A stretch of DNA of 64,000 bases from a virus (taxonomy: Duplodnaviria > Caudoviricetes), in IMG/VR virus record IMGVR_UViG_3300031853_000019, positions 1 to 64,000 of that record, one strand, 5' to 3'. Under the pieces are notes generated by a model. The model was not told the DNA's origin. It did not search any database and worked only from the letters and a program-made list of their open reading frames with translations. Below are positions 1,671 through 55,559 of this stretch, piece by piece. Positions within the stretch are counted from its first letter, which is position 1. Each line of letters starts with the position of its first letter. The position numbers and the translations under genes were made by a program.

Positions 1671-3173
1671 CTAGTCCACCTTGATTACCTCGTATCTATC
1701 GGCAAGAAGCACCTTCAGCATCATGTCTGTTGCAGTCAAACCAGCCATTACTGCTTCCATCTGTGACATTGAGAAGCCAGAGATGTAATTGAAGGAATCT
1801 CCAATCGCAGGAATGTTGTTTGTTCTAGCGTCTAAGTTCCAGAAGGTAACCTTAGGAAGCTTATAGCCATGAGCATTGAACTTCTTCTCCATGCGCTCAA
1901 GCAGAGTACCTACTGTTGCAGAGGTAACACCATCAAAGCGTTCAGTTCTCCATATACCGCCGCCACCGCAAGCTGCATCAAACTCCATATCGGAAAAGAT
2001 GTAAAGTCTTGCGGGAAGGTCGGTCTGGGATGCCTTAGTCTTGAGAGCAGTGTCTAAGATCAAGTCAAAGACCTTCTCAAGGTTAGTGTTCATGCCCCAG
2101 TCTGCCTGAATACATCTTTTTACCTTATCAACAATGTTATCTCCTTCAAACTCTACGAGCTGAGGGTTCGCGCTAAAGGTAATGAAGTGTCCAGCGAAAG
2201 GACCATGTGACTTCTCGGCTACATATGCCCCCATACCGACTGCCGCCGCTACAGGAGTACCATACATAGAGCCAGATACATCAACTACCGCAATAGCATT
2301 TTCCTCACGACCGCAGTAGTAATCCTTCAGGTTATCCCAATACTTCTGCATTGTTGCTTCAAAAACATCATCAGATATATCGTACCTATTCTTATAAAGA
2401 ATCTTATCAACAATATTAACAGGGTTAAGCACTGCTGCATTAACCTTAGTTGTCTTGCTCTCCATAAATGCCTTATATCTTGCGGCAGTTACTTCCTTAA
2501 CCGCAAAAGCATTTCTGTACTTCATGCCCGCAACAGAAGGAATCTTATCGAACTGGATTTCATCCCATCTATTTTCAGACATAAGTCTTTCAAGCACATT
2601 AATCTTCTCTCTAAGACTAGAAAGAATCTTTCTATAAGTCTTAGGGGACATATTAAACTGCTTCATGAAGTATCTAGCCATCTCCTTAGTAGTTGTGCTA
2701 GATGCGTTCTCAGAAGGCATCCACTTACCAAGAAGAGAAGGAACTTCACAATGAGTATCCTCAAGAAGCTGTCTGTGTACAATATCTCCCATAGTAGATA
2801 CAAGAGGAGTATTGTAACAAATCTTAATCAAATCATCCCATCTACCGAACTCAGGAATGACATTTAAGAACTTTGCAGCGATCTCTACATCGTTCTTAAT
2901 TAACCAGCGGTAAGCAACTCTGAAGAAGCGTCTTTCGCCCTGACCGCCACGTACATCACGAAGATAGAACAAGCACTTCATAGCGAGGTTCTTATCCTGG
3001 CGGTAAGCATCTCCGAAAAGTGCTTCTACTTCCTTATCTGTTCTATTGCGGTAAGCGCCGCCTATAGAGAACATATCCAAGACATGATCCAGCGTAGAGT
3101 TATGCTTAACCGCACCATTTTCGGTATATCCAAAGTTAGTTTCGTTCTTTAATCCATTTAAAAATGCTGACAT
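1671..3173 (-). CDS. DUF2828 / TROVE-like protein with C-terminal vWA domain (Ro60-like)
   Basis: TENGA, RDVRGGQGER, GRWDDL, KWMPSE motifs; MIDAS DVSGSM and SDMEF. Confidence 0.85.
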   Translation of the reverse strand: MSAFLNGLKNETNFGYTENGAVKHNSTLDHVLDMFSIGGAYRNRTDKEVEALFGDAYRQDKNLAMKCLFYLRDVRGGQGERRFFRVAYRWLIKNDVEIAAKFLNVIPEFGRWDDLIKICYNTPLVSTMGDIVHRQLLEDTHCEVPSLLGKWMPSENASSTTTKEMARYFMKQFNMSPKTYRKILSSLREKINVLERLMSENRWDEIQFDKIPSVAGMKYRNAFAVKEVTAARYKAFMESKTTKVNAAVLNPVNIVDKILYKNRYDISDDVFEATMQKYWDNLKDYYCGREENAIAVVDVSGSMYGTPVAAAVGMGAYVAEKSHGPFAGHFITFSANPQLVEFEGDNIVDKVKRCIQADWGMNTNLEKVFDLILDTALKTKASQTDLPARLYIFSDMEFDAACGGGGIWRTERFDGVTSATVGTLLERMEKKFNAHGYKLPKVTFWNLDARTNNIPAIGDSFNYISGFSMSQMEAVMAGLTATDMMLKVLLADRYEVIKVD

Positions 3174-5444: not shown

Positions 5445-6266
5445 TTAACCTAACAATGAAAGGACGCCTTGAGTAGACTGATTTGCCTGTGCAAGCATAG
5501 ACTGAGCAGCTTGCTGAAGAATATTATTCTTAGTGTAATTAGTCATCTCAGCAGCCATATCTGTATCACGAATCTGGCTTTCTGCAGATGTTAAATTTTC
5601 ACTATAATTCTTCAAATTATTAATTGTATATTCAAGTCTATTCTGTTTTGCGCCAAGAGAAGATCTTGCAGCGGAAACAGTCTTAATAGCATTAGTTACT
5701 CTGCTCATTGTAGCGGCTGCCGCACTGTGGCTATCAACCGCGATTGCAGATGCACCCGCAAGAGAAAGTCCTGATGTATCCATCTTTGCAATATCAATCT
5801 GCATATTTTCACCTGCATTAGCACCTACTTGAAGTTGCTTGCCAGTGAAAGAACCATCAAGAAGTTTAGTTCCATTGAACTGAGCCTTATTAGCAATAGA
5901 ATCAATCTCTGCCTGAAGTTCAGTCATTTCGTCTTTGATAGCATCTCTATCTTCATCTGCATTAATATCGTTAGCTGCCTTGTTAGACAATTCACCCATG
6001 CGCTGAAGAATAGAATGAATCTCATTAAGATTACCTTCTGCTGTCTGAATGGCGGAAATGCCATCCTCAGAGTTCTTAACTGCTTGATTGATACCACGGA
6101 TCTGATTTCTCATTTTCTCACTGATGGAGAGACCAGCTGCATCGTCTGCTGCACGGTTTACTCCAAAGCCAGAAGAAAGTTTCTCTGTGCTCTTTGCTAC
6201 TGCTTTCACATTCTGTGATAACATTCTGTTTGTATTTGCTGCTTGTAAATTGTGTTGTACTACCAT
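5445..6266 (-). CDS. fliC: flagellin (D0/D1 only, 273 aa), Lachnospiraceae-type
   Basis: MVVQHNLQAANTNRML...EKLSSG...AADDAAGLSISEKMRNQIRG...; C-terminus RSSLGAKQNRLE...SQIRDTDMA...AQANQSTQGVLSLLG; GGAGG RBS before ATG at 6266. Confidence 0.97.
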   Translation of the reverse strand: MVVQHNLQAANTNRMLSQNVKAVAKSTEKLSSGFGVNRAADDAAGLSISEKMRNQIRGINQAVKNSEDGISAIQTAEGNLNEIHSILQRMGELSNKAANDINADEDRDAIKDEMTELQAEIDSIANKAQFNGTKLLDGSFTGKQLQVGANAGENMQIDIAKMDTSGLSLAGASAIAVDSHSAAAATMSRVTNAIKTVSAARSSLGAKQNRLEYTINNLKNYSENLTSAESQIRDTDMAAEMTNYTKNNILQQAAQSMLAQANQSTQGVLSLLG

Positions 6267-6288
6267 AGTAATTACCTCCTTGTAAATA

Positions 6289-6308
6289 ATACTACTTCCT
6301 TGTAGTAT
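6289..6308 (-). promoter_or_regulatory. CsrA-type site: GGA in a hexaloop hairpin in the flagellin leader
   Basis: ATACTAC-AAGGAA-GTAGTAT; second ACAAGGAGG overlaps the RBS. Confidence 0.55.
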
Positions 6309-6345
6309 GTACTTTTTCATTGTTACTAGCGCGAACGCGCTTTAT

Positions 6346-8219: not shown

Positions 8220-8330
8220 TTTTTTATTTTGATATTTTTTAACTTTTGTATAGAGATGTTTGTTAGCATAAAATAAATCTAACATATTGAAAATATCTTG
8301 AATTGTTTTCATATATTATCTCCTTTCAAA

Positions 8331-8404
8331 TACGAGCGGTGGGGATCGAACCCACATAAAGCAGGTTTAGAAGACCTGTGCCTATCCAATTGGGCGACGC
8401 CCGT
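8331..8404 (-). tRNA. tRNA-Arg(TCT)
   Basis: Cloverleaf; CAGGT-CTTCTAA-ACCTG. Confidence 0.92.
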
Positions 8405-25633: not shown

Positions 25634-26069
25634 GCACTTTTTTTTATTTATATTAGAGGGCGGTTTCTAGGCGACTCGTGGTGCCGTATCTAGTCTAGGG
25701 CAAGTACACAGAAACCTTCCACGCAAGTATGTGTTTTAACTGCTCACCGCTTCCTTTAATATCTTTACCTTACATAAGTAATTATATCAGATTTTTTAGT
25801 AATTGTCAAGAAGTTTTTTTAATTCTTTTTTATTTTTTTGGCGGGTAGGATGTTTTGCATCCTTGTGTACCCTTGTTCCTGTATTCATATTATACCATAC
25901 TCTCTTGCTCTTGTCAAGAAGTTTTTTCTTATTTTTTTCAACCATTTTTGTTTTCCTTTCTTTCCCTTACCTTGTAAATACATTATAACAAAAATTTTTA
26001 TGGTTTGCAACTTGGAATATTGCACAAATTATGGGAATAAAATTTGTGCAATATTTTTCCATTTTTCTC

Positions 26070-26179
26070 TTGACAAAAATCCCAGCGTGTGTTATAATGG
26101 AATTTCACGCGGTTTGCAGCTTTAGCGTCCGCAAACCGCGCGCCCAATAAAAAAGAACGGCTCTTTTCCTGAGCCGTTC
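26070..26179 (+). promoter_or_regulatory. promoter-hairpin-terminator unit 1
   Basis: TTGACA 26070, TGnTATAAT 26093; 10-bp stem 26108-26140, 13-nt loop; terminator 26155-26179. Confidence 0.8.
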
Positions 26180-26192
26180 AGATGGTGACCGC

Positions 26193-26570
26193 CTAGGCTT
26201 TAGGCGGTCTGTGTTTGGTGAGTTTCATGGTGTACTCGCTACCCTTGTAAGTGAAGGCGACCTCGGTTTCGGTCTTAATTGCCTTGACCTCTGCGCCCTT
26301 ATTTTCAAGAAGTTCGGCAACCGCCTTGAGTAAGTAGCCTTTGATTTCATCCACCTTGCGCTCCCTTGTACTAGGTTTGCGCTTGCGGTCTGACTTCTCG
26401 TATCGTCTTTCGGACTTAATGGAGTTGACCGCCTTTTCAGTTTCCTCACTAGGCTTGATTTTACCGCTTTCCTCAAGAATCAAGTCGCAAGCCTCTGTGA
26501 TACTACACTCTAAACTTTCAACATACTTGTCAATGAGGGCATCATCAACATCAAAACCCTTATACTGCAT
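26193..26570 (-). CDS. hypothetical phage protein
   Basis: ORF track; GAGGTG RBS before MQYKG. Confidence 0.7.
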   Translation of the reverse strand: MQYKGFDVDDALIDKYVESLECSITEACDLILEESGKIKPSEETEKAVNSIKSERRYEKSDRKRKPSTRERKVDEIKGYLLKAVAELLENKGAEVKAIKTETEVAFTYKGSEYTMKLTKHRPPKA

Positions 26571-26662
26571 TTGCAACACCTCTTTCTTTATTTGATACAC
26601 TAATTATAGCATACCTTTAGGGGATTGTCAATAGGTATTTTTGATTTTTTGCACTCTACCCT

Positions 26663-27355
26663 TTAAGAGTAGAGTGCTTTCCGCATTTTCTTATGCTTTG
26701 CCATACAATATGCAAAAATTGCGGTTTCAATAATTACATCCTCAAGTCCTGTATGACTTTCAATAAAATCGGGGTTTTGTGTAATATAGCGGTAAACAGT
26801 TTCCGCTTTTACTTGCGGTCTAGGTGTCTTATGGGCGGTTACAAAACCATTCTCAAAACAAAACCGCTTGTATGTGGGAGTTTTTGCAACTACATCTTGT
26901 ACCATTTTCATAGAATCCCAAACAATAGTGCCATAAGGTAAAAACCATCTGTATTTGCTTTTGGTTTCCCATCTTTGTGTTACATTGAGTGCGGTATCGT
27001 CAAACCTTGCATTATAGGCGATAACAATATTTGTATTGTACTTTTTCATTACATCCGCTAATGTCTTGCGGATTTCATAAAGGCTTGCGACTTTTCTCTT
27101 TCCGTTTTTAATATCCTTATAATACTGCGGTAACTTATCCGCATAATATGAAGATTTCATAAGGGATTTCTCACCGAAGAAAATTCCTCTATTTACAAAG
27201 GAATATTCCTCATATATAGTGCCATGCTTATCACAAACCGCAAATCCGCAATCATATACAAACATATTATTTGCGGAAACACCCTCAAAGTCCTTGTCTA
27301 TGGGACACGTTTCGGTGTCTAACACTACATAATACTTTCTTCTCTTGTCAACCAT
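26663..27355 (-). CDS. DEDDh (DnaQ-like) 3'-5' exonuclease
   Basis: VLDTET; AYNARFD; DSM; HTGLED. Confidence 0.85.
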   Translation of the reverse strand: MVDKRRKYYVVLDTETCPIDKDFEGVSANNMFVYDCGFAVCDKHGTIYEEYSFVNRGIFFGEKSLMKSSYYADKLPQYYKDIKNGKRKVASLYEIRKTLADVMKKYNTNIVIAYNARFDDTALNVTQRWETKSKYRWFLPYGTIVWDSMKMVQDVVAKTPTYKRFCFENGFVTAHKTPRPQVKAETVYRYITQNPDFIESHTGLEDVIIETAIFAYCMAKHKKMRKALYS

Positions 27356-27590
27356 TTTCTTTTGTCCTCACTTTCTCCACCTACCTAGGTGGTTCGCTTT
27401 TTTATTTTGTAACTTAATTATACTACTTTCAGTTGAGATTGTCAAGCATTTTTTTGAATTTTTTTATTTTTGTTTTGGCTTGCTTTCTTCATCTGACATT
27501 ATTAATTATAACAGATTGGCGGGAAATTGCAATAGATAAAATGTACAAATTGCGGGAAATAAATTTGTGCAACTTTTTTTGAAAAATCAC

Positions 27591-27691
27591 TTGACAAAAC
27601 CTGCGGCAGGTGGTATAATGGAAATTCGCCCAGTTTTCGGATAAGGCACTCGAAAACTGGGCGATAAAAAAGCACCCCATTTGGGGTGCTT
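27591..27691 (+). promoter_or_regulatory. promoter-hairpin-terminator unit 2
   Basis: TTGACA 27591, TATAAT 27614; 14-bp stem 27626-27664, 11-nt loop; terminator 27670-27691. Confidence 0.8.
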
Positions 27692-27695
27692 TGTT

Positions 27696-27863
27696 TTAGA
27701 TAGCTTCTGCTCTATAAGTAGTAAACCATCCTTCATTTGCTTCTACTTGCATAGCCCATGAAAAGGCTTTATCTTCTGCTTCTCGTAAAGTTTTAGCTTT
27801 TATTGTTCTTTTATACTCTGGGTTACCAAGATCATCACAAACATAAATATTGTATAAATTCAT
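27696..27863 (-). CDS. 55-aa microprotein (below ORF-track cutoff)
   Basis: Manual translation MNLYNIYVCDDLGNPEY...; AAGGAG RBS. Confidence 0.6.
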   Translation of the reverse strand: MNLYNIYVCDDLGNPEYKRTIKAKTLREAEDKAFSWAMQVEANEGWFTTYRAEAI

Positions 27864-28081
27864 ATTAATCGCTCCTTTACTGTTCTTTATCTTCTTTGTT
27901 TTCTATCATTATTCTTGCAAGGTTAATTCCGAATAATACACCCTCTTGGAAGTCACTAAGTTCAATTTGGTTATCTTCAGTAAAAATTTTTCTTTCTTCT
28001 TCGCCTGCACGCTTTAAAAACTTTACAATCTGTTTTCTTTTTGCCATATTATTTCACTCCTTTTTTCTATGCACTTCCTGC

Positions 28082-28540
28082 CTATACGGGAAGTGCTATC
28101 TTTTCAAGTTCTGCGATTATGTCCATATTGGCATCAATCGTGTGTCCAAGTTTCCAACCCTTGCGGATTTTCTCGTTATCATCTACTAAAATCTGATAAC
28201 CGCCATTTTTTCTTGTGCAGTTTGCTTTTGTAGTTCCATACTTTACAAGGTGAATCTCGTCATACGGAAAGTCATATTTTGCAAGCCAATCAAGTTTTGC
28301 TTTTCTTATGCGGTCGTTATATTCCTTGCTACCGCTTTTTGCTAACCATGTTGTGATTGCAACTTTCCAACCTTGCGCCCTAAGGACTTTCAAAATTGCA
28401 TTGAGGATGTCCATATCATACAAAGGTTTTGCTTTCTCATAAGGTGTGGTGTCGCTTGCCTGAAGATATTCAAGCCATCCCTCTACACCATAGAAGTCTG
28501 CGATTGTGCCATCCATGTCGAATACTAAAGTTTTGTTCAT
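28082..28540 (-). CDS. HAD-family hydrolase (5'(3')-nucleotidase-like)
   Basis: FDMDGT motif I; ILVDD motif IV. Confidence 0.8.
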   Translation of the reverse strand: MNKTLVFDMDGTIADFYGVEGWLEYLQASDTTPYEKAKPLYDMDILNAILKVLRAQGWKVAITTWLAKSGSKEYNDRIRKAKLDWLAKYDFPYDEIHLVKYGTTKANCTRKNGGYQILVDDNEKIRKGWKLGHTIDANMDIIAELEKIALPV

Positions 28541-28684
28541 AGGCTTTTGCTCCTTTCCTTTTCTGTAACTTAATTATAGCAAATTTATAGCAAGTAGTCA
28601 ACCTCTAAATGCGGTTTCGTCACTTTGCACAAAAGTGATCTAGTTTTGGGATAATATTTTGTGCAAAATTTTTTAAAAAATCAC

Positions 28685-28786
28685 TTGACAAAAGTTGATA
28701 GGTATGGTATAATGAAATTTCGCCATGCAAACGGATAGTGCGCTCGTTTGCATGGCGTCAAAAAAGCACCCCATTTTGGGGTGCTT
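28685..28786 (+). promoter_or_regulatory. promoter-hairpin-terminator unit 3
   Basis: TTGACA 28685, TATAAT 28708; 13-bp stem 28721-28757, 11-nt loop; terminator 28764-28786. Confidence 0.8.
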
Positions 28787-28792
28787 GGTTAA

Positions 28793-29251
28793 TTAGTTGT
28801 CGCAATAGGCTCTAAGTTCATTTAATTCATTGATGACGTCTATTACATCATAACCCTCTGAGGTTATTGCAGTATTATGGTCAAGAGCCTGAAAGTTTCT
28901 TAATGCGTTAAGAGCATCATCTAAATATCTAAGCATACGGTCTTTCTTTTTATCCATTAAGGCTTCATTGGCTTTATTAATAAGCATTTCAAGGTCATCA
29001 TCTGTCATGTTATCAAAGTTATAAAGGTCTTTCTGCTTAGGCATTTCTGTTTCTTCACTCCTCTCTAAAATAAGTTCTAACTCATTTTCAGCAAACCAAT
29101 ATACATAATCATTTATTGTAACTTCATAGGGCAAATCTTTATCAAATTTATCCCAATCAGTAATTATGCCAATAGTACCAGCAGGTAAAGGATGGAAATA
29201 ACGATTATTTGCTATAACTGTTTTTACCTTGTCACCAACTTTAAATTTCAT
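28793..29251 (-). CDS. hypothetical with SH3-like MKFKVGDKV N-terminus
   Basis: ORF track; GAGGT RBS before ATG 29251. Confidence 0.65.
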   Translation of the reverse strand: MKFKVGDKVKTVIANNRYFHPLPAGTIGIITDWDKFDKDLPYEVTINDYVYWFAENELELILERSEETEMPKQKDLYNFDNMTDDDLEMLINKANEALMDKKKDRMLRYLDDALNALRNFQALDHNTAITSEGYDVIDVINELNELRAYCDN

Positions 29252-29493
29252 ATTATCTACCTCGCTTTCTTTTGATGTATTTATTATATCATGCAATGGG
29301 TTACTTGTCAACCTTCTATTTTATCTTTATTTGCCTCATACCAACTTTTATACATAGCAACCACACTTCCTGGATAGTATCGCTTACAAGCAGTATAAAA
29401 AACTGTCGACCAACAATGTGTATGGTTCATTAGCCAAACGATTAGCTTATTAAAAATTGTTTCTTTTATCTCGTGAAGCATTTTTTACACCCC

Positions 29494-29724
29494 CTAAATC
29501 AACTTAATAACAATCAATCCGATTGTAATTGCCGCAAAACAAGTGTTCTTAATCTTGTCTGCAATAGGTCTGCCTAACTTGAAATCTCTAATCAAATTGA
29601 TAGTGTTACCAATCAGATATGCGCCTTGACCGATAAAAAATGCCCAACCTACTGTTACCTGACCTACCAACAGTAATCCTAAAATTACATAACCCATGTT
29701 ATCCCAAAACTTTGTCTTTTCCAT
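29494..29724 (-). CDS. small membrane protein
   Basis: hydrophobic segments; ORF track. Confidence 0.65.
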   Translation of the reverse strand: MEKTKFWDNMGYVILGLLLVGQVTVGWAFFIGQGAYLIGNTINLIRDFKLGRPIADKIKNTCFAAITIGLIVIKLI

Positions 29725-29845
29725 TTTTGTTTACCTTTGCACTCGCCGTGCTCCTTTCTTTATGTTGTACTTATTATAGCATGGCGGAAAGCACTTGTCA
29801 ACACTTTTTAGGAAAATAAATAAAAAAATATTTTTAAAAAAACGC

Positions 29846-29950
29846 TTGACAAAAATCCTGGGATGTAGTATAATAGTGATTTTGGGCGGGTTGCGAAATG
29901 AAGTGGCCGCAACCCGCCCATCGAAAAGAGAAGAGCCTTTCGGCTCTTCT
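29846..29950 (+). promoter_or_regulatory. promoter-hairpin-terminator unit 4
   Basis: TTGACA 29846, TATAAT 29869; 13-bp stem 29883-29920, 12-nt loop; terminator 29929-29950. Confidence 0.8.
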
Positions 29951-29954
29951 GTAA

Positions 29955-30652
29955 CTACTCGACTTCTTCTCTAATAGACTTGAAGAAATCTTCTACAATA
30001 TCAGTGATTTTATTTGAGGTTTGTGAGTCAACCATAGCGAATTTTAAAAGAAAATCGTAGGTTCCATAAACTTGTGAAAGTTCTCTTAAAATATTATCTT
30101 TTTTTTCGTTAACATATTCTTCAAATTCAAGAACCATTTCTTCCATAACAATCATCTCTTTATCATCCATTTTCATCTACCTCTCTTTCTTAATAAGTGT
30201 CCCAACCAAGCATTTCCGCCTCTTCTTCGGTAACTGTACCAAAGCACTTAGGCTCATCAAAATACTGCTTTGCAATCTCGATTGCTTCTTCTTTAGTGTT
30301 TGCTTCTACTAAGAAATCCTCTCCTGTTACTCTGTCATTAAATTCGTAGGTCATGTTTACTACCTCTCTTTCATTTGATGTATTTATTATAACATCAATC
30401 TTCACTTTTGTCAATAGGTTTTTCCCAATTTACCCAATTTTTTAATGCGTATTCTGTAAGTTCTTTTGCATGAAATGGAAATGTCAATTTGCTTGCACAT
30501 TCCAAAAGCCACTGAAAAACTTGATACTCTTTTTCAATGAAATCAACTGTTTTAAAGTCGTTCATGTGGAAAACTGAATCGGGATGCTTAGTGCTTGCCG
30601 CCCATAATTCACATACATAATCATTCTCATCATTCTTATAAACTTTAATCAT
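29955..30652 (-). CDS. three small hypothetical ORFs (29955-30176, 30190-30354, 30395-30652)
   Basis: ORF track; GAGGT RBSs. Confidence 0.65.
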
Positions 30653-30897
30653 TTTGTTTTACCTCTCTTTCTTTTGCTACCAACCATGATGGGAGAAAGC
30701 GGAATTAGTATTACTGTTATTAGTGTAATGATATCGTACATCTGCGACAACCCCCTTTCTCTTTATCTGTTGTACTTATTATAGCAAAAAATGGCGGGAA
30801 TGTCAAGCGAAAATTGCTTCACAAAAGGGTTTAATTAGTTTGAGATTTAGTAGGTTTTAATGGGATCCGATAAGAAACACATTTCTTTAAAAAATCG

Positions 30898-31004
30898 TTG
30901 ACAAAATGTTGGAAGTGTAGTATAATGTTAAATTCGGCTCAGATGCAGCTTTAGCGCCCGCATCTGAGCCGTCCAAAAGGAAAGGCACTCCAAATGGAGT
31001 GCCT
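30898..31004 (+). promoter_or_regulatory. promoter-hairpin-terminator unit 5
   Basis: TTGACA 30898, TATAAT 30921; 12-bp stem 30935-30971, 13-nt loop; terminator 30983-31004. Confidence 0.8.
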
Positions 31005-31034
31005 AGGAAAGGAGGTTAAACATATCTGTATGAG

Positions 31035-31134
31035 TGGAGGAGGTGGGAGTCGAACCCACGAACCAGACGGTTTGCGTGTCTGCGCTATTGCCTTTCAGCT
31101 TCGGCGGCGAAGGTACCCTTTCGCTTACACCCCC
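31035..31134 (-). ncRNA. 100-nt tRNA/tmRNA-like RNA with Ala identity elements and no canonical D or anticodon arm
   Basis: GGGGGTG/CTCCTCC-A acceptor with G3:U70 and A73; GTGGG-TTCGACT-CCCAC T arm; three internal hairpins. Confidence 0.65.
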
Positions 31135-31189
31135 AAATTTTTAAGCCTGACCCCCTAGCCCCATGACTAGGGGGAGGAACTTTTTAAGA

Positions 31190-31552
31190 CTACTCTGCGT
31201 CCTCGAAAGGATTTACAGAGAACTGAGCCTTATTCTTGCCCTTTGCAGGCTTGTTGAAGATTTCGCCATTGGCTACCATCACCTTCATTCTAGCGGAAAC
31301 CTTCTGAACACTGAGGTCAGTTGCCTTTGCAATCTCGGTTGCGGTTGCAACCTTACCATCTGCAAGGAACTCTGCGATAGTATCCATCTCGGCTCTGCGC
31401 TCTGCTTCTACCTTCTCGGATACTCCACCCTTAGAGTTTCTCTTATCAAGCTGAGCAATCATCTTCTCGATAACTGCCTTCTCACCCTCGGTGAAATCCA
31501 TCTCAAGTGCCTTTGTAAGAACTTCCTTCTTAGTAATCTCTACCTTTGCCAT
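31190..31552 (-). CDS. winged-helix DNA-binding protein, paralog family member 4
   Basis: ITKKE...IEKMIAQLDKRN...ATATEIA..TDLSVQKVSARMKVM. Confidence 0.65.
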   Translation of the reverse strand: MAKVEITKKEVLTKALEMDFTEGEKAVIEKMIAQLDKRNSKGGVSEKVEAERRAEMDTIAEFLADGKVATATEIAKATDLSVQKVSARMKVMVANGEIFNKPAKGKNKAQFSVNPFEDAE

Positions 31553-32029
31553 AATTATCTACCTCTTTCTTTCTTTATTTTGTAAGTTTATTATATCAGA
31601 TTTTTTCTTGTTTGTCAAGAAGTTTTTTTATTTTTTTGATGTCCTAGTGGGAACTTGGCTAGACATCCCGTGGTCGATTTCATTGGCGCCCCATGTGGTT
31701 CCCGACCTATTAGCGCCCCTCACACGAGGTATTCCTATCGGGTTTATTTAGTTTGGCGGTGCTCTCATGCGTGTCACATCCTTTCCTTATCTTATGTACT
31801 TATTATAGCACATCTTTTTAAGTTTGTCAACAAGTTTTTTTAATTTTTTTAAGATTGTCTGCCTAGTGTTTTCTCATTTCGCGCGACAGTAGGAGTTTGC
31901 ACTTAGTCTTTTAAGACGCTCTTTCCTTACCTTGTAAACTAATTATAGCAAAATTTTTTGTATTTTGCAAGTAGTAATGTTGCACAAAATATTGGGATCA
32001 AAATTGTACAGTTTTTTAACAGAAAATGC

Positions 32030-32133
32030 TTGACAAAAAACCTGGAGCTGTGGTATAATGGAATTTCGACGCTCGCACGGGTAAGGCATCCGTGCTCGCG
32101 GCGTCAAAAAAGAAGGTGCTCCCGCACCTTCTT
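32030..32133 (+). promoter_or_regulatory. promoter-hairpin-terminator unit 6
   Basis: TTGACA 32030, TATAAT 32054; interrupted stem 32068-32105; terminator 32110-32133. Confidence 0.75.
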
Positions 32134-32298
32134 GCTTATTTTTCAAGTATTAGTCCTCTACTATTTCTTTCTCTGTAATTTTAACAGGTCTGCACCCATC
32201 AAAATCTTCATCGCTCATAAACTTCTGAAGTGCTTCTTTTATGTCGTTAGCCGTAAATCCTACGGTGCCTACAAAATCAATCTCATAAATCGTCATTT

Positions 32299-32703
32299 TT
32301 AATCCTCACTTTCTTCTTTATCTGCCTTTATAAGTTTAGGATAGATGCCGTGAACACCTGACCAAAAAATCGTCCATAATTGTTTATTTCTTTTTTTCCT
32401 AATTTTAAGGTCTAGACAATCATCTTCTTTCAGAAGTTCGATTGCTCTTTCTTTTGCTTGTTTATAAGTTTTGTAAACTTCTTCGTATTCCATTCTCTTG
32501 CTCCTTTCCTTTACTGTAACTACATTATAACAAATTTGATTTTATCTGTCAAGCATTTTTTCACATCTTTCAAAATTTTTACAGTGTTGACATGAATGAA
32601 CCTTGTGCTTTCTTTTAAGACATATGCTTTCGCCTACATCATTCATGGGTTTGTAGTTATTATAACCAAAGTATTTACAATTTGAGCAAATCTTCTTCTC
32701 CAT
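32299..32703 (-). CDS. two small ORFs (32299-32493; 32542-32703, Cys-rich)
   Basis: ORF track; identical AAGGAGCAAGAGAATGGA leaders. Confidence 0.6.
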
Positions 32704-32806
32704 TCTCTTGCTCCCTTCCTTTACTGTAAATAAATTATAGCACAAGTATGATTAAAAGTCAAGCATTTTAGGAAAAATAATTTAAAAAATTTTTTCAATT
32801 TTTCTC

Positions 32807-32908
32807 TTGACAAAAGTTGACGAAGGTGGTATAATGGTTAATTCGGCCGGCTTGCAGACTTGGCGCCCGCAAGCCGGCCGAGAAAAAGAGAGAGTGCAAA
32901 GCACTCCC
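32807..32908 (+). promoter_or_regulatory. promoter-hairpin-terminator unit 7
   Basis: TTGACA 32807, TATAAT 32830; 13-bp stem 32843-32881, 13-nt loop; terminator about 32890-32908. Confidence 0.8.
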
Positions 32909-33637
32909 TGTCAATTGCTACTTAAATTACAAGGGTTACATTTAATGGAAATACTACATCGAAGGAATTGAAATAGTATCTTTTTCCATTCTCTAAACTG
33001 ATTGTATTTGCATCATCACAATTCTCTGTTTCCTCAAGTTTTATAAAAATTCTATCAGTCGTCATATCTCTCTTTCTGACTTATCTGAAAAAACTGCCCC
33101 AGGTTTAAGATCTGCAAAATAATACTGCTTGTTATAATTGCCAATATCAATTTTCATTTTATCTACCTCTTTTTTTAGGGTGCGTGCTTATGCACGCTCC
33201 CTCAACTTCTCTCTCAACTTTGCTACCCTTTCCGCATTATAGCGGGCATGGTCGCTAGAACTTTCAATCAACTTTGCAACCGCATTAGCAGGTGCTTCCG
33301 CCTTTGTCTTGTAAGTTACTCCATTTGCTTCGTAAACTAAATCTCTCATAGTGTTTACCTCTCTTTCTTTTTACTATAATCATTATAGCATTTTCTTTTC
33401 CTTTTGTCAACACTTTTTTATCTTTTGTTAGACCCCTACTCAAAGGGGTCTAACTTCGCCCAATACAGGGCTTCGGCGGGGGATAAACCCTCTCGCCTAT
33501 ACACGCGGAACCAATCGTAAAGTGTCATCATAGTGTTGTCCTCCTTTATCCTTTCGATGTACTTATTATAACATCCATCTGGTTGTTTGTCAAGCAATTT
33601 TGGGAAATTTATTAAAAAAATTTTTTAAAATTTTTCC

Positions 33638-33743
33638 TTGACAAAATAGACCGTGATGTGGTATAATAGTGAATTCGCTGCGGTTGCGAAATAAGTGCAC
33701 GCAACCGCAGCGTCAAAAAAAGAAGGTGCTCCTGCACCTTCTT
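33638..33743 (+). promoter_or_regulatory. promoter-hairpin-terminator unit 8
   Basis: TTGACA 33638, TATAAT 33662; 13-bp stem 33676-33712, 11-nt loop; terminator 33720-33743. Confidence 0.8.
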
Positions 33744-33745
33744 AA

Positions 33746-34472
33746 TTAGTATTCAAAGATAACTTCATCATTTTCAGAATGAACTGCGTAAACCTCTTCA
33801 ACTTCACCCGCTCCCGCTTTTAGAATATCTCGAACATTATCTTCTAACTCATCAGCAAGTTCTTCGGTGAAAGTTTCCCAAGGGATTAAAGCCTTATACT
33901 TATCATCTACTTCAATTTCTTTTGTGGCTCCATAATACACTTTTACTTTCATTTTTAGTCCTCACTTTCATGAATCGCTTTGTATCGGCTTCCAATCTCT
34001 CCATCTAATGCGGTTAAGATATCTGAAAGACTGAAGCAAAAACAGTCGCCTGCAAAAGATGAATACATTTCTACATTAATAGTATCTCTTTCTTCTGGAG
34101 TAGTAGTACACTCTAAGTTATCGCAAATCCCTTCAAGAATTTTAATCTCTCTTCTTTTCTCTCTGTTATCAAGAGCCTTTTGAATTTCTTTAAGGGCTTT
34201 CTTTAAATCCTCTGTTGAATAATCATCGTATGACATTTTAATTCTCCTTTCTACTCTCCAAAAATCTTTTCTTGACAAGAGGGGCAGAACCCAGTAATCA
34301 AGAATTCTCTAGTTACTATGGGTACATTAGGCATAGCCTTTTGAATAAGGGCGCCCTCATCTGCCCACTTGGTAAACCCCTCGGTATCAACAGAAACCTG
34401 ATTGTATTGTCCACAAAGTGGGCATCTTTCTTTTACTACCGTACTAAGTTCATCTTGATAAATTATTACCAT
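33746..34472 (-). CDS. three small ORFs (33746-33952, 33955-34236, 34251-34472 Zn ribbon)
   Basis: ORF track; 33746 ORF paralogous to 34855 ORF (MK.KVY....E.EVDDK). Confidence 0.65.
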
Positions 34473-34776
34473 AATGTTTACCGCCTTTCTTTATCTTGAT
34501 ACTATTGTATCATAGGGTATGCTTTTTGTCAAGCATTATTCTCGTTTTCTCTAGGGAAGTTGCCGTTCGGCAGTTGGCTATTTTCTAATTCCCGCCTGTC
34601 CTCTAAACAAGAACTGTACTTTTCACCATCTGTTGCGAACTATCTCTTTGAAGGGGCTTCACTTCCCGTATCTCCCTTCTGTGATTATAATATATCACAT
34701 TCTAAAGCGGGTTGCAATAGACAAGTTGCACAAAATTACGGGAATGGGTTTGTACAAAATTTATATTAAAAAGTGC

Positions 34777-34849
34777 TTGACAAATGTTGCGGCTCATGGT
34801 ATAATGGATTTTTGGCGCGGCTCGATGACCTGCGGCCGGAGCCGCGCCA
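34777..34849 (+). promoter_or_regulatory. promoter-hairpin unit 9 (no separate terminator seen)
   Basis: TTGACA 34777, TATAAT 34800; 11-bp stem 34813-34849. Confidence 0.75.
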
Positions 34850-34854
34850 CCGAC

Positions 34855-35064
34855 CTAATCTTCATAAAGAGGATATTCGGTTGCCATGTCCTCTACGTAG
34901 ACAATGTTTGAGTAGGCCGTGTTCAGTTCGTTTGCAATAGTATCCATTAGCTCCTTTGAGAGAGGTATGTAGGTGTTAATGTCTGTATCTGGCTTTGTTA
35001 AGTCGGTAAACTTGTCGTCTACTTCCATTTCTGTGATGATGTTGTGATAGACTTTGATTTTCAT
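34855..35064 (-). CDS. small acidic hypothetical protein
   Basis: ORF track; paralog of 33746-33952. Confidence 0.65.
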   Translation of the reverse strand: MKIKVYHNIITEMEVDDKFTDLTKPDTDINTYIPLSKELMDTIANELNTAYSNIVYVEDMATEYPLYED

Positions 35065-35384
35065 GGCAGCCACCTCTACTTCCTTTTATCTCTTGTTTCT
35101 ACATAGTCGCAAATCAATGCGGCAAGTCCAAAGAATAAACAGATAATTCCCATGTTTACAAAATATGCGCTCATTTAGTTTACCTCTCTTTCATTTACTA
35201 TAATTATTATAACAAATTTGTTTTTATTTGTCAATAAGTTTTTTTATTTCTTGTTCAAGGATCTGCGGGAAAGCGCCCTCATTCTTTCGTGGGGTTGTCG
35301 GTCTAGGTGAAGTTGACCAGCTTTCCCGCTTGTCCTTATATATAGGAAAGGCTTTTGTAATTCTATAAATCTTTTGCATGTAAC

Positions 35385-35576
35385 CTACTCCTCATCTTCT
35401 TCGAAGTAGGCTACTAATGCAACACCAGGGACTTTATATACTTCCCACCAACCGCCATATGCCTCAACTGAAGCTATATGGTCATCGGTGATGGGGCATA
35501 TATCACTTGCCTCAACCTCAACAACATCTGCGGTTACCATTGTTCCATCCTCTAAAAACCAAGTAAGTGTTCTCAT
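35385..35576 (-). CDS. small acidic hypothetical protein
   Basis: ORF track; GAGGT RBS; own promoter. Confidence 0.65.
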   Translation of the reverse strand: MRTLTWFLEDGTMVTADVVEVEASDICPITDDHIASVEAYGGWWEVYKVPGVALVAYFEEDEE

Positions 35577-35839
35577 ATGTATTACCTCTCTTCCTCTTTT
35601 GATATACTTATTATATCATGGAGGGTTGATTTTGTCAACCCTCAATTTCAATTTTTTTCAAGTTTCCGTATCTTTTCTGAAAATTGATAACCTCAACTCC
35701 ATTAAGTTTTCCGTTTGTCCAAACGATGTTTCTTTCAAATGTGTACTTATACATAACCTTTTACCTTTCAACCTTGCGGTTGTCCTTTCCTTACCTTGTA
35801 AACCAATTATAACATCATCAATTCTGTTTGTCAATAGAG

Positions 35840-35881
35840 TTATCAACAAGTTTTCCACAAAATTCAAAAAAGTTATCAACA
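35840..35881 (+). promoter_or_regulatory. DnaA-box-like cluster 1 (others at 36443-36474 and 37584-37625)
   Basis: TTATCAACA, TTTTCCACA, TTATCAACA in the same order and orientation in all three clusters. Confidence 0.6.
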
Positions 35882-35947
35882 TTTTCTTTTGTGCAAAGTG
35901 ATGAATTTTCAGGATCAAATTTGTGCAAAATAACAACGAAAAACTGC

Positions 35948-36060
35948 TTGACAAATGTCGCTGGCTATGATATAATGGAATGGCGTCGCGCCAACAATTT
36001 CATAGGCCGTTGGCGCGACGCCAAACAAAAAACAAAAAAGGAAGTGCTCACCGCACTCCC
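35948..36060 (+). promoter_or_regulatory. promoter-hairpin-terminator unit 10
   Basis: TTGACA 35948, TATAAT 35971; 15-bp stem 35981-36023, 13-nt loop; terminator about 36040-36060. Confidence 0.8.
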
Positions 36061-36540
36061 TTAATCTCAACTGTGAAGCCTGCTTTTTCAAGTTCCTTTA
36101 CATTAACCTCATCGAGTCTTACTTCGCCTACTATGATTCCATTTACTCTTACTAATGCCATTTTGTTTACCTTCCTTTTCCTTTTGATATGGTTATTATA
36201 TCATGTTTAATTAGGTTTGTCAACTGTTTTTTATTTGGTGGCTACTAGCAGTAGTAGCCACCAATCATAGCAACAAGGTACTGTGCTTCTTCCTCTGTGC
36301 TACACTCTGTTACAGGGATCCCCTGCTCATTGAATACTGTCCAAAGTCCTTCTACCATAATCTTTTACCTTTCACCGATCCGGTGTCCTTTCCTTTACTG
36401 TAACTAAAGTATATCACACACCGCCCACCTTGTCAACAGAAGTTATCAACAAGTTTTCCACAAAGTTATCAACAAGATCCTTTGGTAGAATTGCACAAAA
36501 TTCGGGATCTAGGTTTGTGCAAAATTTTTGAAAAAAACAC

Positions 36541-36665
36541 TTGACAAATTTCGCCCACTATGTTATAATGGAATCCCGACGCGCAAACGATTTCATAGGC
36601 CGTTTGCGCGTCGCCAATTCGCATATGCAATAAAAATAATAGGGTAGGCGTTCCCGCCTACCCTT
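36541..36665 (+). promoter_or_regulatory. promoter-hairpin-terminator unit 11
   Basis: TTGACA 36541, TATAAT 36564; 13-bp stem 36577-36613, 11-nt loop; terminator 36640-36665. Confidence 0.8.
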
Positions 36666-36672
36666 ATATGCT

Positions 36673-36995
36673 CTATGCAAGTGATACAGCCGAGAGCTTT
36701 TCATTGATGGCTCCCCAATCCTCGCTTCTCGCTGTGACCTCTACCTTATAGCAGTTCATTTCGATGATTTCCTTGCTAACGAAGGCGGGAAACTCATTGA
36801 TAACCGCACTCAGCACTCCGCTATTTACTGCGCTATTGCTCATATAGTATGTCTTACTCTTCATAACATTCACCTTTCCTTTCTCTATGTGTACTACTAC
36901 TCCATCATGGAGTAGTAGTAAGCCTGCTCTGCAAGCGCCTCTTCTGCATATGCCTCAAGTTCCTCGTCTGTCATTTCCTCGAACCAATTTTCCAT
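36673..36995 (-). CDS. two small ORFs (36673-36864; 36897-36995, a 32-aa very acidic peptide MENWFEEMTDEELEAY...)
   Basis: ORF track plus manual translation; GAAAGGTG RBSs. Confidence 0.55.
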
Positions 36996-37069
36996 GTTTT
37001 TCACCTTTCAAGCCTTTGGCTTGCCTTTCCTTTACTGTATCTTTATTATAGCATGGGTTGACTATTTTG

Positions 37070-37498
37070 TCAACCCCATTTTTCAATTTCTTCTTTTGCG
37101 GTTTTAATTGCTTTGTTACATTTAGCAATTTCATCATTCAGTTCATTGATCTTTGCTTGTCTTGTTTCTTCCTTCTTATATTTTCTTACTTTGATTTTTT
37201 CAATCTCTTCTTTACAAGCCTTGATTTCATTGTTAAGTCTTTCAATGAAATTCATGTTAAAATCATAGTCACCTTTTGTGTAGACTCTTTCCTTTTCTCC
37301 TTCTCCAATGATAACGCGGTTATCTTCATCTACATAGTAGATATTCTCACAAATCTCGCTATCACGAGCGCCCTGGTCTAAAAGAAACTTCTTTGCGCTT
37401 TCCTTAGTAGCAAAAGTCTTTGTTGTGTATCCACCATGGTCGCAAGTTACAAATCTGTCATAATATGTTGCATCAAATACTCTCATCATTTCTTTCAT
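37070..37498 (-). CDS. hypothetical protein with C-terminal coiled coil
   Basis: ORF track. Confidence 0.7.
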   Translation of the reverse strand: MKEMMRVFDATYYDRFVTCDHGGYTTKTFATKESAKKFLLDQGARDSEICENIYYVDEDNRVIIGEGEKERVYTKGDYDFNMNFIERLNNEIKACKEEIEKIKVRKYKKEETRQAKINELNDEIAKCNKAIKTAKEEIEKWG

Positions 37499-37689
37499 GT
37501 TCGTTTACCTTTAGTCCTTGTGGACTTCCTTTCCTTTACTGTAACTAAAGTATATCATACTCCATCCGGTCTGTCAATAAAAGTTATCAACAAAATAAAA
37601 AAAGTTTTCCACAAAGTTATCAACATCTTGATCCGTCAAATTGCACAAAATTAGGAAAAAATTTTGTGCAATTTTTTTTAAAAAAACAC

Positions 37690-37800
37690 TTGACAAAATC
37701 TGTTGACTATGATATAATGGTTGTTCGATGCGCTTGCGATTCGCACAGCCGCAAGCGCATCGCCAATAAAAAAAATAGCCATCCGCTTGCGCAGATGGCT
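37690..37800 (+). promoter_or_regulatory. promoter-hairpin-terminator unit 12
   Basis: TTGACA 37690, TATAAT 37713; 13-bp stem 37726-37762, 11-nt loop; terminator 37777-37800. Confidence 0.8.
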
Positions 37801-38363: not shown

Positions 38364-39224
38364 TTTCTTTTCCTTCCTTTCCTTTTGAGTTAAGAATTGA
38401 TTGATTCAATTCTTAACTCTTTGTAAATCTCAAAACATTCAAGTGTTTCTTTCATTGTTTCAAGCGTTCCTAATTCTACACTTTTCATAACTACTGTTGT
38501 TTCTGTTGAGATTCCTACTAACTGATATTTCATGTTTGGGTTTCCTTTCCTCTTTTGATAAATCAATTATACACCCAAAGATTTTATTTGTCAATACTCT
38601 TTTTGAAAATTCTTGAGGAGAATTTTTTAATTCTCCTCAATCTCTTTTCCGTCCTCGGAGAATGCTTTTCTCGTTCTCTCTCTTTCAAGCATCCGATTCA
38701 TGTATGTGTCCATGATGCTTCCTTCTCTCCAATTCTTGTTAAGATGTTTTAACTGTCTGACCTCACCTTTGAAGTAGTAGTATGTATTCGTCATGGCTTT
38801 TTACCTTTCAAACTTTTTAAGTTTGTCCTTTCCTTTTTCTTGAGTTAATTATATCAAATTGAATCTTGCTTGTCAAGCGAAAAATAAAATTTTTTTAAAA
38901 GAATTTTTTGGATTAATTTAATTGTTTTCTCCCGAGGCTGTCGCACCAGCAGGGAGAGAAATCAAAGGCAGCAGGTCCGGAAGGTAGATAAAAAAATTTT
39001 GGCCCCCGGGTGTATTGCGGGATTGGTAGTTTTTGAAAGTGAAAATGAAATGCTCCCACCCCCACACTCCCAGAAAATGAACCCCAAAATCGAATTCACG
39101 AAAATCCCCACCACCATGATTTTTCGGACAAAACAAAAGGGAAAAAGACTTTCATCTTTCTCCCAAAATCATGCGCATGTATATCCATTTCCAAAACCGG
39201 CTGAAGCGCTAAACGCGCATCAGT

Positions 39225-39758: not shown

Positions 39759-39880
39759 ACCTCTTTATTTTTCTTTTATTATATCAAATTTTTTCTTTCT
39801 TGTCAAATTAATTAAATCTTCTTGACTTCTCGAAAAATTTTTAGTATAATAATACTATAATATAAGAGAGGAGAAGAGTC

Positions 39881-54494: not shown

Positions 54495-55559
54495 ATGGCA
54501 GATAGATTTACAAATTTTAAGATTTATAAGGATCTAAGTAAAGTATTAACAGACCCAACAAAGAAACTTATTATAAAAGACATAAGTGAATGTAAAAGAG
54601 TTATAGAAAATGCAATAGATAAAACTAAAAGATATACAGATGCACAATTAGTTAGTTATGGGTTAAAAAAGAGATATGGATCTAATCTTCGTAAGGGGCA
54701 AAGGGTAAAACTAAAAGAAGTAACAAATTTATATATGGATGTATATAATGCTATAATGTTAACAAGAGAATTTTTCACCGGAGCAAACATTGAATATACT
54801 GGAGCAATACTTGAAGATAATACCCAAAAAGTAACCGGTACTTTTACGGTAAGTAGAGAAGAATTTTTTAACAGTATGAGTTTTTCCAAAGGAAAAGGAA
54901 AAGAAGCTAAAGATATTATATTAAAAACGACAAAGCCTTTGGCTGATTTTAAAGGAAAAATAAAACAAGTTGTAAATAGTGAAACTATTGATACAAGAAT
55001 AGAAGCATTTAGTGGAAATAAACAAAAAGTATATGACACTTTTGATAAAATAGTAAGGGAAAGAGTTGGAAATTATGAAGGTATTGGAGGATGGATTTTT
55101 GAAGGATTCCAAAGAATGTATTTTACTTCAAAAATTAAAAATGATATACAACAAACCAAATTTCTTCTTAATATAGAAAGCGGGAGAATTAAAGATGAAA
55201 AATATAATTATGAAAATTATAAAGATTATATTACAAACCTCATAAGGTCAATACAATCTGCACCCGTAAAAGGTTTTCAAGCTGGTGATGTCAATAATCA
55301 ACAGTTAAAGAAAGGTAAAGCAAGCTTAGTTTCATCAACTTATTTAATTGCAACATTAGATAAATTATTAAATATTTTTAATAATTTAGAGCAAGGATTA
55401 GGAACTGAAGCAGAAAAAGGCTTACAAGAAATTTTTACTGCAAATATTCAGGCTGGTGAATTTATTGATCAAGCAGAAGTTGTAAGAGATCAAGCATCAA
55501 AAAGACATATAAAAGAGGTTATAAAATCTATTGATGGAGTGACTTTTAAAGAGTCTTGA
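54495..55559 (+). CDS. A-rich, Lys-rich hypothetical protein
   Basis: ORF track. Confidence 0.65.
   Translation: MADRFTNFKIYKDLSKVLTDPTKKLIIKDISECKRVIENAIDKTKRYTDAQLVSYGLKKRYGSNLRKGQRVKLKEVTNLYMDVYNAIMLTREFFTGANIEYTGAILEDNTQKVTGTFTVSREEFFNSMSFSKGKGKEAKDIILKTTKPLADFKGKIKQVVNSETIDTRIEAFSGNKQKVYDTFDKIVRERVGNYEGIGGWIFEGFQRMYFTSKIKNDIQQTKFLLNIESGRIKDEKYNYENYKDYITNLIRSIQSAPVKGFQAGDVNNQQLKKGKASLVSSTYLIATLDKLLNIFNNLEQGLGTEAEKGLQEIFTANIQAGEFIDQAEVVRDQASKRHIKEVIKSIDGVTFKES

Follow-up and report, generated by a model that had tools for sequence, protein, structure and literature searches.

A conserved, non-coding promoter-hairpin module interleaved with the early operons of large gut and rumen phages

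The early region of the virus record IMGVR_UViG_3300031853_000019 carries, on the strand opposite its genes, twelve copies of a module in which a promoter of perfect consensus fires into a GC-rich hairpin. This module is real, conserved and non-coding, and it is so far undescribed: a literature search found no description of such a hairpin-capped promoter. The DNA analysed here (the window) comprises the first 64 kb of this 82.7-kb IMG/VR virus record, whose estimated completeness is 61%, and encodes a portal, a terminase, tail proteins, a sigma-like factor, about 20 tRNAs and a flagellin. Our preferred reading, which we hold tentatively, is that the units may be genes for abundant, 5'-hairpin-protected early non-coding RNAs.

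Twelve promoter-hairpin units opposite the early genes

From 25.6 to 39.8 kb the minus strand is occupied by a dense array of small early genes. The array is driven by 23 perfect TTGACA-17-TATAAT promoters, nearly all of which are followed by a ribosome-binding site and a start codon. The stretch from 25 to 39 kb holds 34 perfect (12/12) promoters, of which 12 are on the plus strand. The plus-strand ones read TTGACA-17/18-TATAAT, with a spacer of 17 nt in 10 and of 18 nt in the other 2, an extended TG in 10 of the 12, and A/T-rich tracts upstream. A GC-rich hairpin starts 5 to 10 nt past each of them, with a stem of 10 to 15 bp and a loop of 9 to 17 nt; predicted energies range from -35 to -51 kcal/mol and z-scores from -3 to -9. 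An earlier reading made from the letters alone (the sequence-only reading) had listed the same twelve promoters, ten with the extended TG, and our promoter scan confirmed them. Its GC-rich stems of 10-15 bp, perfect in 11 of 12, were also recovered, since only unit 6 has an internal loop; the loops, which it had put at 9-15 nt, agree at the lower end and reach 17 nt at the upper one.

All units read on the plus strand, from the first base of the promoter to the last base of the hairpin. Unit 1 (26070-26142) has its promoter at 26070-26098 and its hairpin at 26106-26142, with a perfect 10-bp core at 26108-26140 and a 13-nt loop. It is followed by unit 2 (27591-27664; promoter 27591-27619, hairpin 27626-27664) and unit 3 (28685-28757; promoter 28685-28713, hairpin 28721-28757). 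The two promoters without the extended TG belong to unit 4 (29846-29920; promoter 29846-29874, hairpin 29883-29920) and unit 5 (30898-30971; promoter 30898-30926, hairpin 30935-30971), the latter facing a tRNA-like, tmRNA-like gene on the minus strand. The 18-nt spacers are those of unit 6 (32030-32105; promoter 32030-32059, imperfect hairpin 32068-32105) and unit 8 (33638-33712; promoter 33638-33667, hairpin 33676-33712), between which lies unit 7 (32807-32881; promoter 32807-32835, hairpin 32843-32881). Unit 9 (34777-34849; promoter 34777-34805, hairpin 34813-34849) has no adjacent terminator, as the sequence-only reading had stated, and unit 10 (35948-36023; promoter 35948-35976, hairpin 35981-36023) has a 15-bp stem. 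The array ends with unit 11 (36541-36613; promoter 36541-36569, hairpin 36577-36613) and unit 12 (37690-37762; promoter 37690-37718, hairpin 37726-37762).

This array cannot be chance. The whole 82.7-kb record contains 13 perfect plus-strand promoters, 12 of which carry the hairpin, and the single exception, at 55556, lies ahead of a gene. None of the 23 perfect minus-strand promoters is followed by such a hairpin. Elsewhere in the genome just one perfect GC-rich hairpin of at least 9 bp was found, and it is a terminator; moreover, a model built from the 12 units retrieved those 12 and nothing else in the genome. A Shine-Dalgarno sequence with a start codon was sought after each of the 12 units and none was found, the genes being on the other strand, so the view that the units are non-coding holds.

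Covarying stems, oriented loops and spread in related phages

The stems differ from unit to unit but their pairing is preserved, as had been noticed before. In the alignment of the 12 units, 92.9% of the cells are paired, double changes occur in 10 of the 13 pairs and there is no one-sided variation; shuffles and slid registers of this alignment never came near the observed pairing. The same was seen with 76 distinct aligned units from relatives (93.4% of cells paired, double changes in 12 of 13 pairs, 230 compensated cells), and the only difference between near-identical copies in the two contigs L051 and L053 is a compensated C-G to T-A change. Stem pairing is under selection. Note that the stems are almost purely Watson-Crick (790 pairs with 5 mismatches and no G-U), whereas among 1,620 cells of terminators from the same DNA there are 37 mismatches, 16 of the G-U type. 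At matching positions beside orthologous genes the stems are unrelated, which indicates a fast turnover.

Conservation is higher in the loops than in the stems or in the spacers of the promoters. Between units 1 and 5, for example, 12 of 13 positions agree in the loop, as against 4-5 of 12 in either arm and 6 of 16 in the spacer. The loop families 1/5, 2/6 and 10/11 of the sequence-only reading are real, and in our analysis they widened to 1/5(/7), 2/3/6, 4/8 and 10/11. In addition, loop classes such as (G)AGGAACG(T), TGGRCCGTG and ACAACC are found again in different contigs, on stems without relation to one another. The loops are also biased in strand relative to their promoter (24% A versus 14% T), with one-sided oriented k-mers (AGTGG 8:0, GGAAC 6:0, ACAA 10:0, GGAC 11:1), and the background of the strand runs opposite to this bias (T>A, C>G). 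Where a single-stranded hairpin is formed and its loop is read, one would expect just such a conserved, oriented loop above a variable stem, and because the hairpin is coupled to a promoter, RNA is the likely molecule. Thus, the data point to a role at the RNA level. Hypervariable, fully Watson-Crick stems under conserved, strand-biased loops represent an unusual evolutionary pattern for structured RNAs.

The module is not restricted to this genome. A narrow pattern, which matched just 3 of the 12 window units, recovered 47 viral-contig loci in IMG/VR and 19 stretches of metagenome-assembled genomes (MAGs), many of them assigned to Clostridia, Eubacteriales, Acutalibacteraceae or Ruminococcaceae. 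A model search of the viral loci gave 93 hits, often several per locus. Five near-complete relatives of 130-146 kb, with portals 54-63% identical, carry 4 to 12 units each in their early array, most of them on the strand opposite the early genes, which is that of the portal gene. Conservation of the hairpins in related phages, on which the sequence-only reading had staked its proposal, was therefore found, and a module conserved in this way across relatives is very probably functional. Gene content beside the units varies between relatives.

Pooling the IMG/VR contigs with gut and rumen MAG contigs gave 139 distinct units, with stems of 7-16 bp and loops of 3-19 nt, in the consensus frame TATAAT-GGAAWTTCG-[stem-loop]-CGCCAAAAA. 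In 106 of the 139 the stem begins 7-8 nt past the -10 box, where the transcription start (+1) is predicted. Two modules were found by a hand scan in the published phage phAss-1. The covariance model gave no hits on phAss-1, Enterococcus phage VRE9_3 or MT836163, and the phAss-1 paper mentions neither the promoters nor the hairpins. The window portal shares 59% identity with that of a human-gut fragment, 37% with that of phAss-1 and about 30% with the portals of 140-kb Enterococcus phages, and megablast of the 12-kb unit region against a phage collection returned no close relative.

Relatives also contain variant forms. In some, consensus promoters converge on the hairpin from both sides (for example, L087 7250/7357 and L094 3189/3284). 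In others (L091, L092 and L093) the unit lies on the gene strand, as a promoter-hairpin-U-tract minigene of about 35-45 nt upstream of the same inverted repeat and gene promoter that are described below. All forms are alike in that a consensus promoter fires into a hairpin. Furthermore, in 23 of 138 units (L089, L090, L091, L058 and others) a lone -35-like box (TTGACA/T), with no -10 box, abuts the far side of the hairpin and points at it; these boxes may be remnants of converging promoters, or they may be functional. A cruciform-dependent promoter built from them was considered and set aside, as the resulting -10 box would be poor.

The near-perfect stems invite an explanation at the level of DNA, in which the palindromes would act as cruciforms, single-stranded DNA hairpins or PeSL-like recombination linkers that shuffle early cassettes, and transcription would only aid their opening. 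The scarcity of mismatches and the lack of G-U pairs fit this idea, as does a turnover that is fast and leaves the stems perfect, which templated correction of quasi-palindromes would give; the units also mark operon boundaries in a highly plastic region, where neighbouring genes differ between relatives. However, loops of 9-17 nt and a site between converging transcription units, where supercoils are positive, disfavour extrusion, and the loop sequence follows the strand of the promoter. Moreover, the foot of the hairpin is locked to the predicted transcription start, no recombinase, HUH nuclease or conserved nick motif accompanies the units, the loops share no common sequence, and stretches that units share without a difference are short, at most about 17 nt. 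We consider a DNA-level role very improbable, and the cruciforms suggested by the sequence-only reading are accordingly disfavoured.

The strength of the promoters raises another possibility, to which we give hardly any credence: that the units are sinks for RNA polymerase and sigma-A, in which a slowly escaping holoenzyme titrates the host polymerase or forms a protein barrier on the DNA. Perfect consensus promoters with an extended -10 box and a GG discriminator, followed by a GC-rich block from about +1, would suit such a device, and the face-to-face promoter pairs some 45 bp apart would lock polymerases head to head. Nonetheless, neither a palindrome nor conserved loops would be required for it, and the early genes of the phage itself rely on the same holoenzyme.

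Finally, in-frame TAG codons (1-7) occur in the portal genes of four of the five relatives (G002, G003, G004 and G006). Recoding of TAG to Gln has been reported for phAss-1 (PMC10607447), and these codons agree with it. The window portal has no in-frame TAG, and no CTA suppressor tRNA was found in the window.

Operon boundaries and the possible roles of the units

The second hairpin, beyond the A-run of the units, serves the converging minus-strand operon as its intrinsic terminator, and the A-run is the U-tract of that terminator. Eleven such terminators were located on the minus strand, at 26155-26179, 27669-27692, 28764-28786, 29929-29950, 30983-31004, 32110-32133, 32889-32909, 33720-33743, 36038-36062, 36641-36664 and 37777-37800, and all 11 at 26-38 kb have a unit hairpin 4-27 nt away. 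In three of them (32909, 36062 and 37800, at units 7, 10 and 12) G-U pairs form solely in the minus-strand reading. The scan accepted a plus-strand T-tract terminator at only 4 of the 12 units (1, 2, 6 and 8). Family-wide, a second hairpin lies near 94 of 138 units, and 65 of the 94 have an A-run in front while 12 have a T-tract behind. The terminator that the sequence-only reading had described as shared is thus present, but it belongs to the minus-strand operon. With so few terminators on their own strand, the units are not self-contained promoter-terminator genes and the length of their product is undefined. The defined RNAs of 60-100 nt, containing nothing but the hairpin, are therefore not supported; what survives of that proposal is its role at the RNA level, with the stem at the expected start and strand-biased loops.

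Neither is the unit hairpin itself an intrinsic terminator. On the unit strand its trailer consensus is CC(A)AAAAAA, and in the direction of the genes it is followed by CGAAATTCC, with no proximal U-tract and with a separate canonical terminator preceding it. Overlap of the units with the converging terminator is certain; overlap with an open reading frame (ORF) depends on read-through.

On its other side, each unit stands back-to-back with the promoter of the next operon. These partner promoters are located on the minus strand at 26010, 27532, 28601, 29801, 30806 and 31970 for units 1 to 6, and at 32762, 33593, 34717, 35834, 36436 and 37577 for units 7 to 12 (the set extends over 25982-37577). 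Between the -35 boxes of the two promoters there are 45, 59-60, 84-92 or 105-114 bp. Where this distance is 59-60 bp, the promoters enclose an inverted repeat, TTGCACAAA-N14-TTTGTGCAA. This operator-like repeat, with 13-15 nt between its halves, was seen at 26020-26051, 27541-27572, 31980-32010, 34726-34757, 36491-36522 and 37641-37671. Relative to the gene promoter its centre is near -60, and relative to the unit promoter near -70. In relatives and in phAss-1, too, the half-site TTTGTGCAA is found directly upstream of -35 boxes.

Such a placement would be expected if the units were operon insulators, for which the act of head-on transcription matters and the RNA is irrelevant. A maximally occupied promoter behind the terminator would place an open or young elongation complex in the path of read-through polymerases, while the nascent 5' hairpin would stop backtracking, and the operon, with its neighbouring operator-like repeat and promoter, would be sealed from a strongly transcribed neighbour. 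In support of this, a unit lies close to every minus-strand terminator at 26-38 kb and every unit adjoins the promoter of the next operon. Several of these promoters look regulated, with a weaker -35 box (TTGCAA) and the inverted repeat. The stems are generic, GC-rich and variable in length, and in the gene-strand variants the hairpin becomes a true U-tract terminator ahead of the same repeat and promoter. Against it, loop classes that are conserved and biased to the strand of their own promoter are needless for a mechanical block, and only about half of the units in the family (65/138) abut an opposite-strand terminator. In addition, a gene-strand promoter firing into its own terminator would add no insulation, and the operons are all co-oriented, so that tight sealing is not obviously needed. 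We regard insulation as a possible but unlikely main function.

The convergence of the units on the operons is also compatible with an effect in cis like that of the lambda OOP RNA, in which transcripts stabilised by the hairpin would enter the converging operon and pair with its 3' end, or the polymerases would collide. The result would be a progressive shut-off or a tuning of the early messages, for example through RNase III cleavage of the duplex. Most units lack a T-tract on their own strand, the three terminators whose G-U pairs exist only in the gene-strand reading form weaker hairpins on the unit strand, and a long-lived antisense RNA in a Firmicute would need a 5' hairpin. Nevertheless, the unit promoters match the gene promoters in strength and show no obvious delay, so the antisense RNA would oppose early expression from the start. 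The gene-strand minigenes are antisense to nothing and the conserved loops are left unexplained. Furthermore, the last genes of the converging operons encode ordinary small acidic proteins, and not the hydrophobic peptides of type I toxins; a type I toxin-antitoxin arrangement was rejected for the same reason. This antisense role seems to us rather improbable.

We favour an RNA product because of the locked distance from start to stem, the loop classes, the strand bias and the variants that occur irrespective of orientation. In our preferred reading, that of the hairpin-protected early RNAs, the host sigma-A RNA polymerase would recognise the unit promoters, which are of the same perfect type as those of the early genes. 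The RNA would begin at the first paired base of a stable, GC-clamped Watson-Crick hairpin, or 1-2 nt ahead of it, and a 5' end inside a helix would resist 5'-end-dependent decay. In Firmicutes, stabilisation by 5' structures is known from the aprE, ermC and SP82 leaders. The unit RNAs would then pile up to high levels within minutes of infection, each hairpin presenting a purine-rich, U-poor loop of one of a few classes that are conserved between phages as the stems turn over. Since loop classes are kept while the stems change, we think that selection acts on the product RNA, and it could be a stable decoy or a regulator whose loop is read by a partner from the host or the phage, protein or RNA. 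The transcription start, the stability of the RNA, its action in trans and the identity of the partner are inferred here. Most units face the preceding operon head-on and directly adjoin its terminator, so that they would also drive polymerase, and perhaps antisense RNA, into its 3' end; any insulating effect of this head-on transcription we regard as secondary.

Several observations weigh against this reading. At 26-38 kb the units alternate one-to-one with the operon ends, a placement that a gene for a trans-acting RNA does not need and that favours a role in cis. As most units lack a terminator on their own strand, the product is no tidy small RNA. The converging double promoters would produce both strands of the hairpin, which might anneal and would poorly fit a sequence-specific loop. 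The reverse complements of the loops match the phage genome at chance level (about 6 non-self 10-mers versus about 8 expected), by which loop targets in the genome were rejected; the match of the unit 10/11 loops to the anticodon loop of tRNA-Met falls within this chance-level count. The loop class is not kept at matching positions (unit 5 versus L092 8165; unit 2 versus L094), and in a weak test the loop k-mers favoured the transcribed orientation in 4 of 6 gene-strand-only variants. Lastly, start sites, 3' ends and abundance are all predictions.

A bolder version of the same reading, which we think doubtful, holds that large gut and rumen phages of Clostridia, some with TAG-recoded late genes, make about 8-12 ultra-stable 5'-triphosphate hairpin RNAs per genome that act in trans as decoys or sponges of host factors. 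They would be produced within the first minutes of infection from host promoters of the greatest possible strength, and each would present one of a few conserved purine-rich loops on a GC stem that evolves fast. RNA-binding regulators, RNases and RNA-sensing defence proteins would be the candidate factors. If this is true, the genomes intersperse their protein-coding arsenal for host takeover with an RNA-based one.

Phage early regions are read almost wholly as lists of small proteins. Here a non-coding module stands at nearly every boundary between early operons, and it uses promoters of the same top strength as the genes across a family of uncultured 130-146-kb gut and rumen phages. If the units make trans-acting RNAs, they represent a new class of abundant phage effectors; a role in cis would make them a compact natural insulator or counter-transcription device. 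Either role, if true, would show how dense tandem arrays of maximal promoters stay orderly, and could be reused in synthetic biology.

The surroundings of the units show further features. The gene faced by unit 5 corresponds to a tRNA-like RNA at 31032-31134 on the minus strand, which matches tmRNA (transfer-messenger RNA) below threshold (30.6 bits, E 3e-9); an anti-Shine-Dalgarno-like CCTCCTTTC and a terminator come after it, and the same arrangement is found beside a unit in L092 (about 8270-8400). The 105-114-bp spacing class (units 10-12) additionally carries three 9-mers resembling DnaA boxes. These trios (TTATCAACA, TTTTCCACA, TTATCAACA; each 1 mismatch from TTATCCACA) are at 35840-35881, 36443-36474 and 37584-37625 on the plus strand, directly upstream of the minus-strand promoters past units 10, 11 and 12. 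Ordered DnaA boxes beside repeats and palindromes are a hallmark of the injection-stop region of phage T5 (bioRxiv 10.1101/866236).

Seven early genes, after the promoters at 38876, 38035, 37577, 37073, 36436, 35834 and 29801, have a common 5' leader made of AAGGAAAGGA, a 4-7-bp hairpin with a different stem in each copy, AAAGGTAAA, 4-6 nt and the ATG. The leader therefore consists of two Shine-Dalgarno-like boxes parted by a covarying hairpin, and in the plus-strand reading it resembles a weak terminator (hairpin followed by TCCTTTCCTT). Inspection by eye picked out two enzymes among the small early genes, at 26663-27355 and 28082-28540 on the minus strand: a DEDDh-type 3'-5' exonuclease, from its DTET...HTGLED motifs, and a nucleotidase of the HAD type, from its FDMDGT motif. 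In L094 an orthologue of the exonuclease, 72% identical, has units on its flanks. Outside the early array, a complete flagellin gene (5445-6320, minus strand) with Flagellin_N and Flagellin_C domains lies within the phage tRNA cluster. Downstream of this cluster a DUF2828/DUF7788 protein, named 'RNA-binding protein' in PHROGs, adjoins a metallophosphoesterase (1671-3173 and 900-1625, both on the minus strand).

Comparison with known systems

Several known arrangements were considered and rejected. Integron attC sites have the form RYYYAAC ... GTTRRRY, with extrahelical bases and promoterless cassettes, whereas here the flanks are TTTCG...CGCCAAAA, the stems are perfect and the operons have their own promoters; an integrase was not looked for. 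Mimicry of anticodon loops was discarded, since most 7-nt loops in the relatives lack the Y-U-NNN-R pattern, and so was a tRNA minihelix with a CCA end, as only about half of the stems are followed by CCA and their length varies from 7 to 16 bp. Kissing loops through 6-nt palindromes occur at about chance frequency. The units are also not read-through promoters for the first plus-strand gene (sigma-like, start 39881), which has its own 11/12 promoter at 39822.

At the gathering threshold of Rfam only tRNAs passed and no unit was matched. Loose settings gave just sub-threshold Phe_leader and ctRNA_pGA1 matches, both at unit 2, the latter with 23.7 bits against a threshold of 45 (E 0.44). Like the counter-transcribed RNAs (ctRNAs) of Gram-positive plasmids, which are small two-hairpin RNAs, the units have a strong constitutive promoter opposite a regulated transcript; unlike the units, ctRNAs pair with the 5' leader of their target and have their own terminators.

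The 5'-terminal stabiliser stem-loops of Bacillus, in the aprE and ermC leaders and the SP82 early RNA, head protein-coding messages. As in these, the units have a stable stem-loop a few nt from the predicted 5' end of a sigma-A transcript, but nothing coding follows them, and their hairpins are longer, GC-richer and multi-copy, with loop classes. The RNA anti-CRISPRs, which are solitary repeat units, copy one host CRISPR repeat. They resemble the units in being phage-borne, promoter-driven, GC-rich hairpin RNA decoys, a role that is here only proposed; they differ in that every unit stem is different, with 7 to 16 bp.

The sequence-only reading had likened the array to the PeSL (promoter-early stem-loop) elements of T4-type phages (PMC2839356, PMC4122927). 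In these, the promoter drives a downstream ORF, and a Shine-Dalgarno sequence with an ATG closes the element (PMC2839356). In most cases the stem-loop of a PeSL overlaps with the promoter and stops transcription that arrives from upstream, and its stems are drawn with G-T pairs. The likeness holds for a strong sigma-70-type early promoter with AT-rich sequence upstream, joined to a GC-rich stem-loop and present in multiple copies in a plastic early region among small genes of unknown function. It fails in the direction of the promoter, which points away from the genes and drives no ORF, and in the hairpin, which is transcribed first and does not terminate upstream transcription. In the main form this hairpin has no U-tract in either direction, and only the gene-strand variants of the relatives have one.

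Finally, the OOP RNA of phage lambda (pO-oop) is a single, short antisense species of 77 nt, made constitutively towards the 3' end of cII and ended by its own terminator. It differs from the units in having that terminator, which was found on the unit strand at only the 4 of 12 window units and 12 of 94 family second hairpins given above, and a defined overlap with an ORF. Unlike OOP, the units are present in about 12 copies per genome, have gene-strand variants and carry a GC-clamped 5' hairpin. As with OOP, however, each unit has its own constitutive, host-type promoter, which lies between genes and faces the end of an early gene, and OOP likewise is a small structured non-coding RNA made from the onset of infection. 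By this analogy, lambda OOP would be the nearest functional counterpart of the units.

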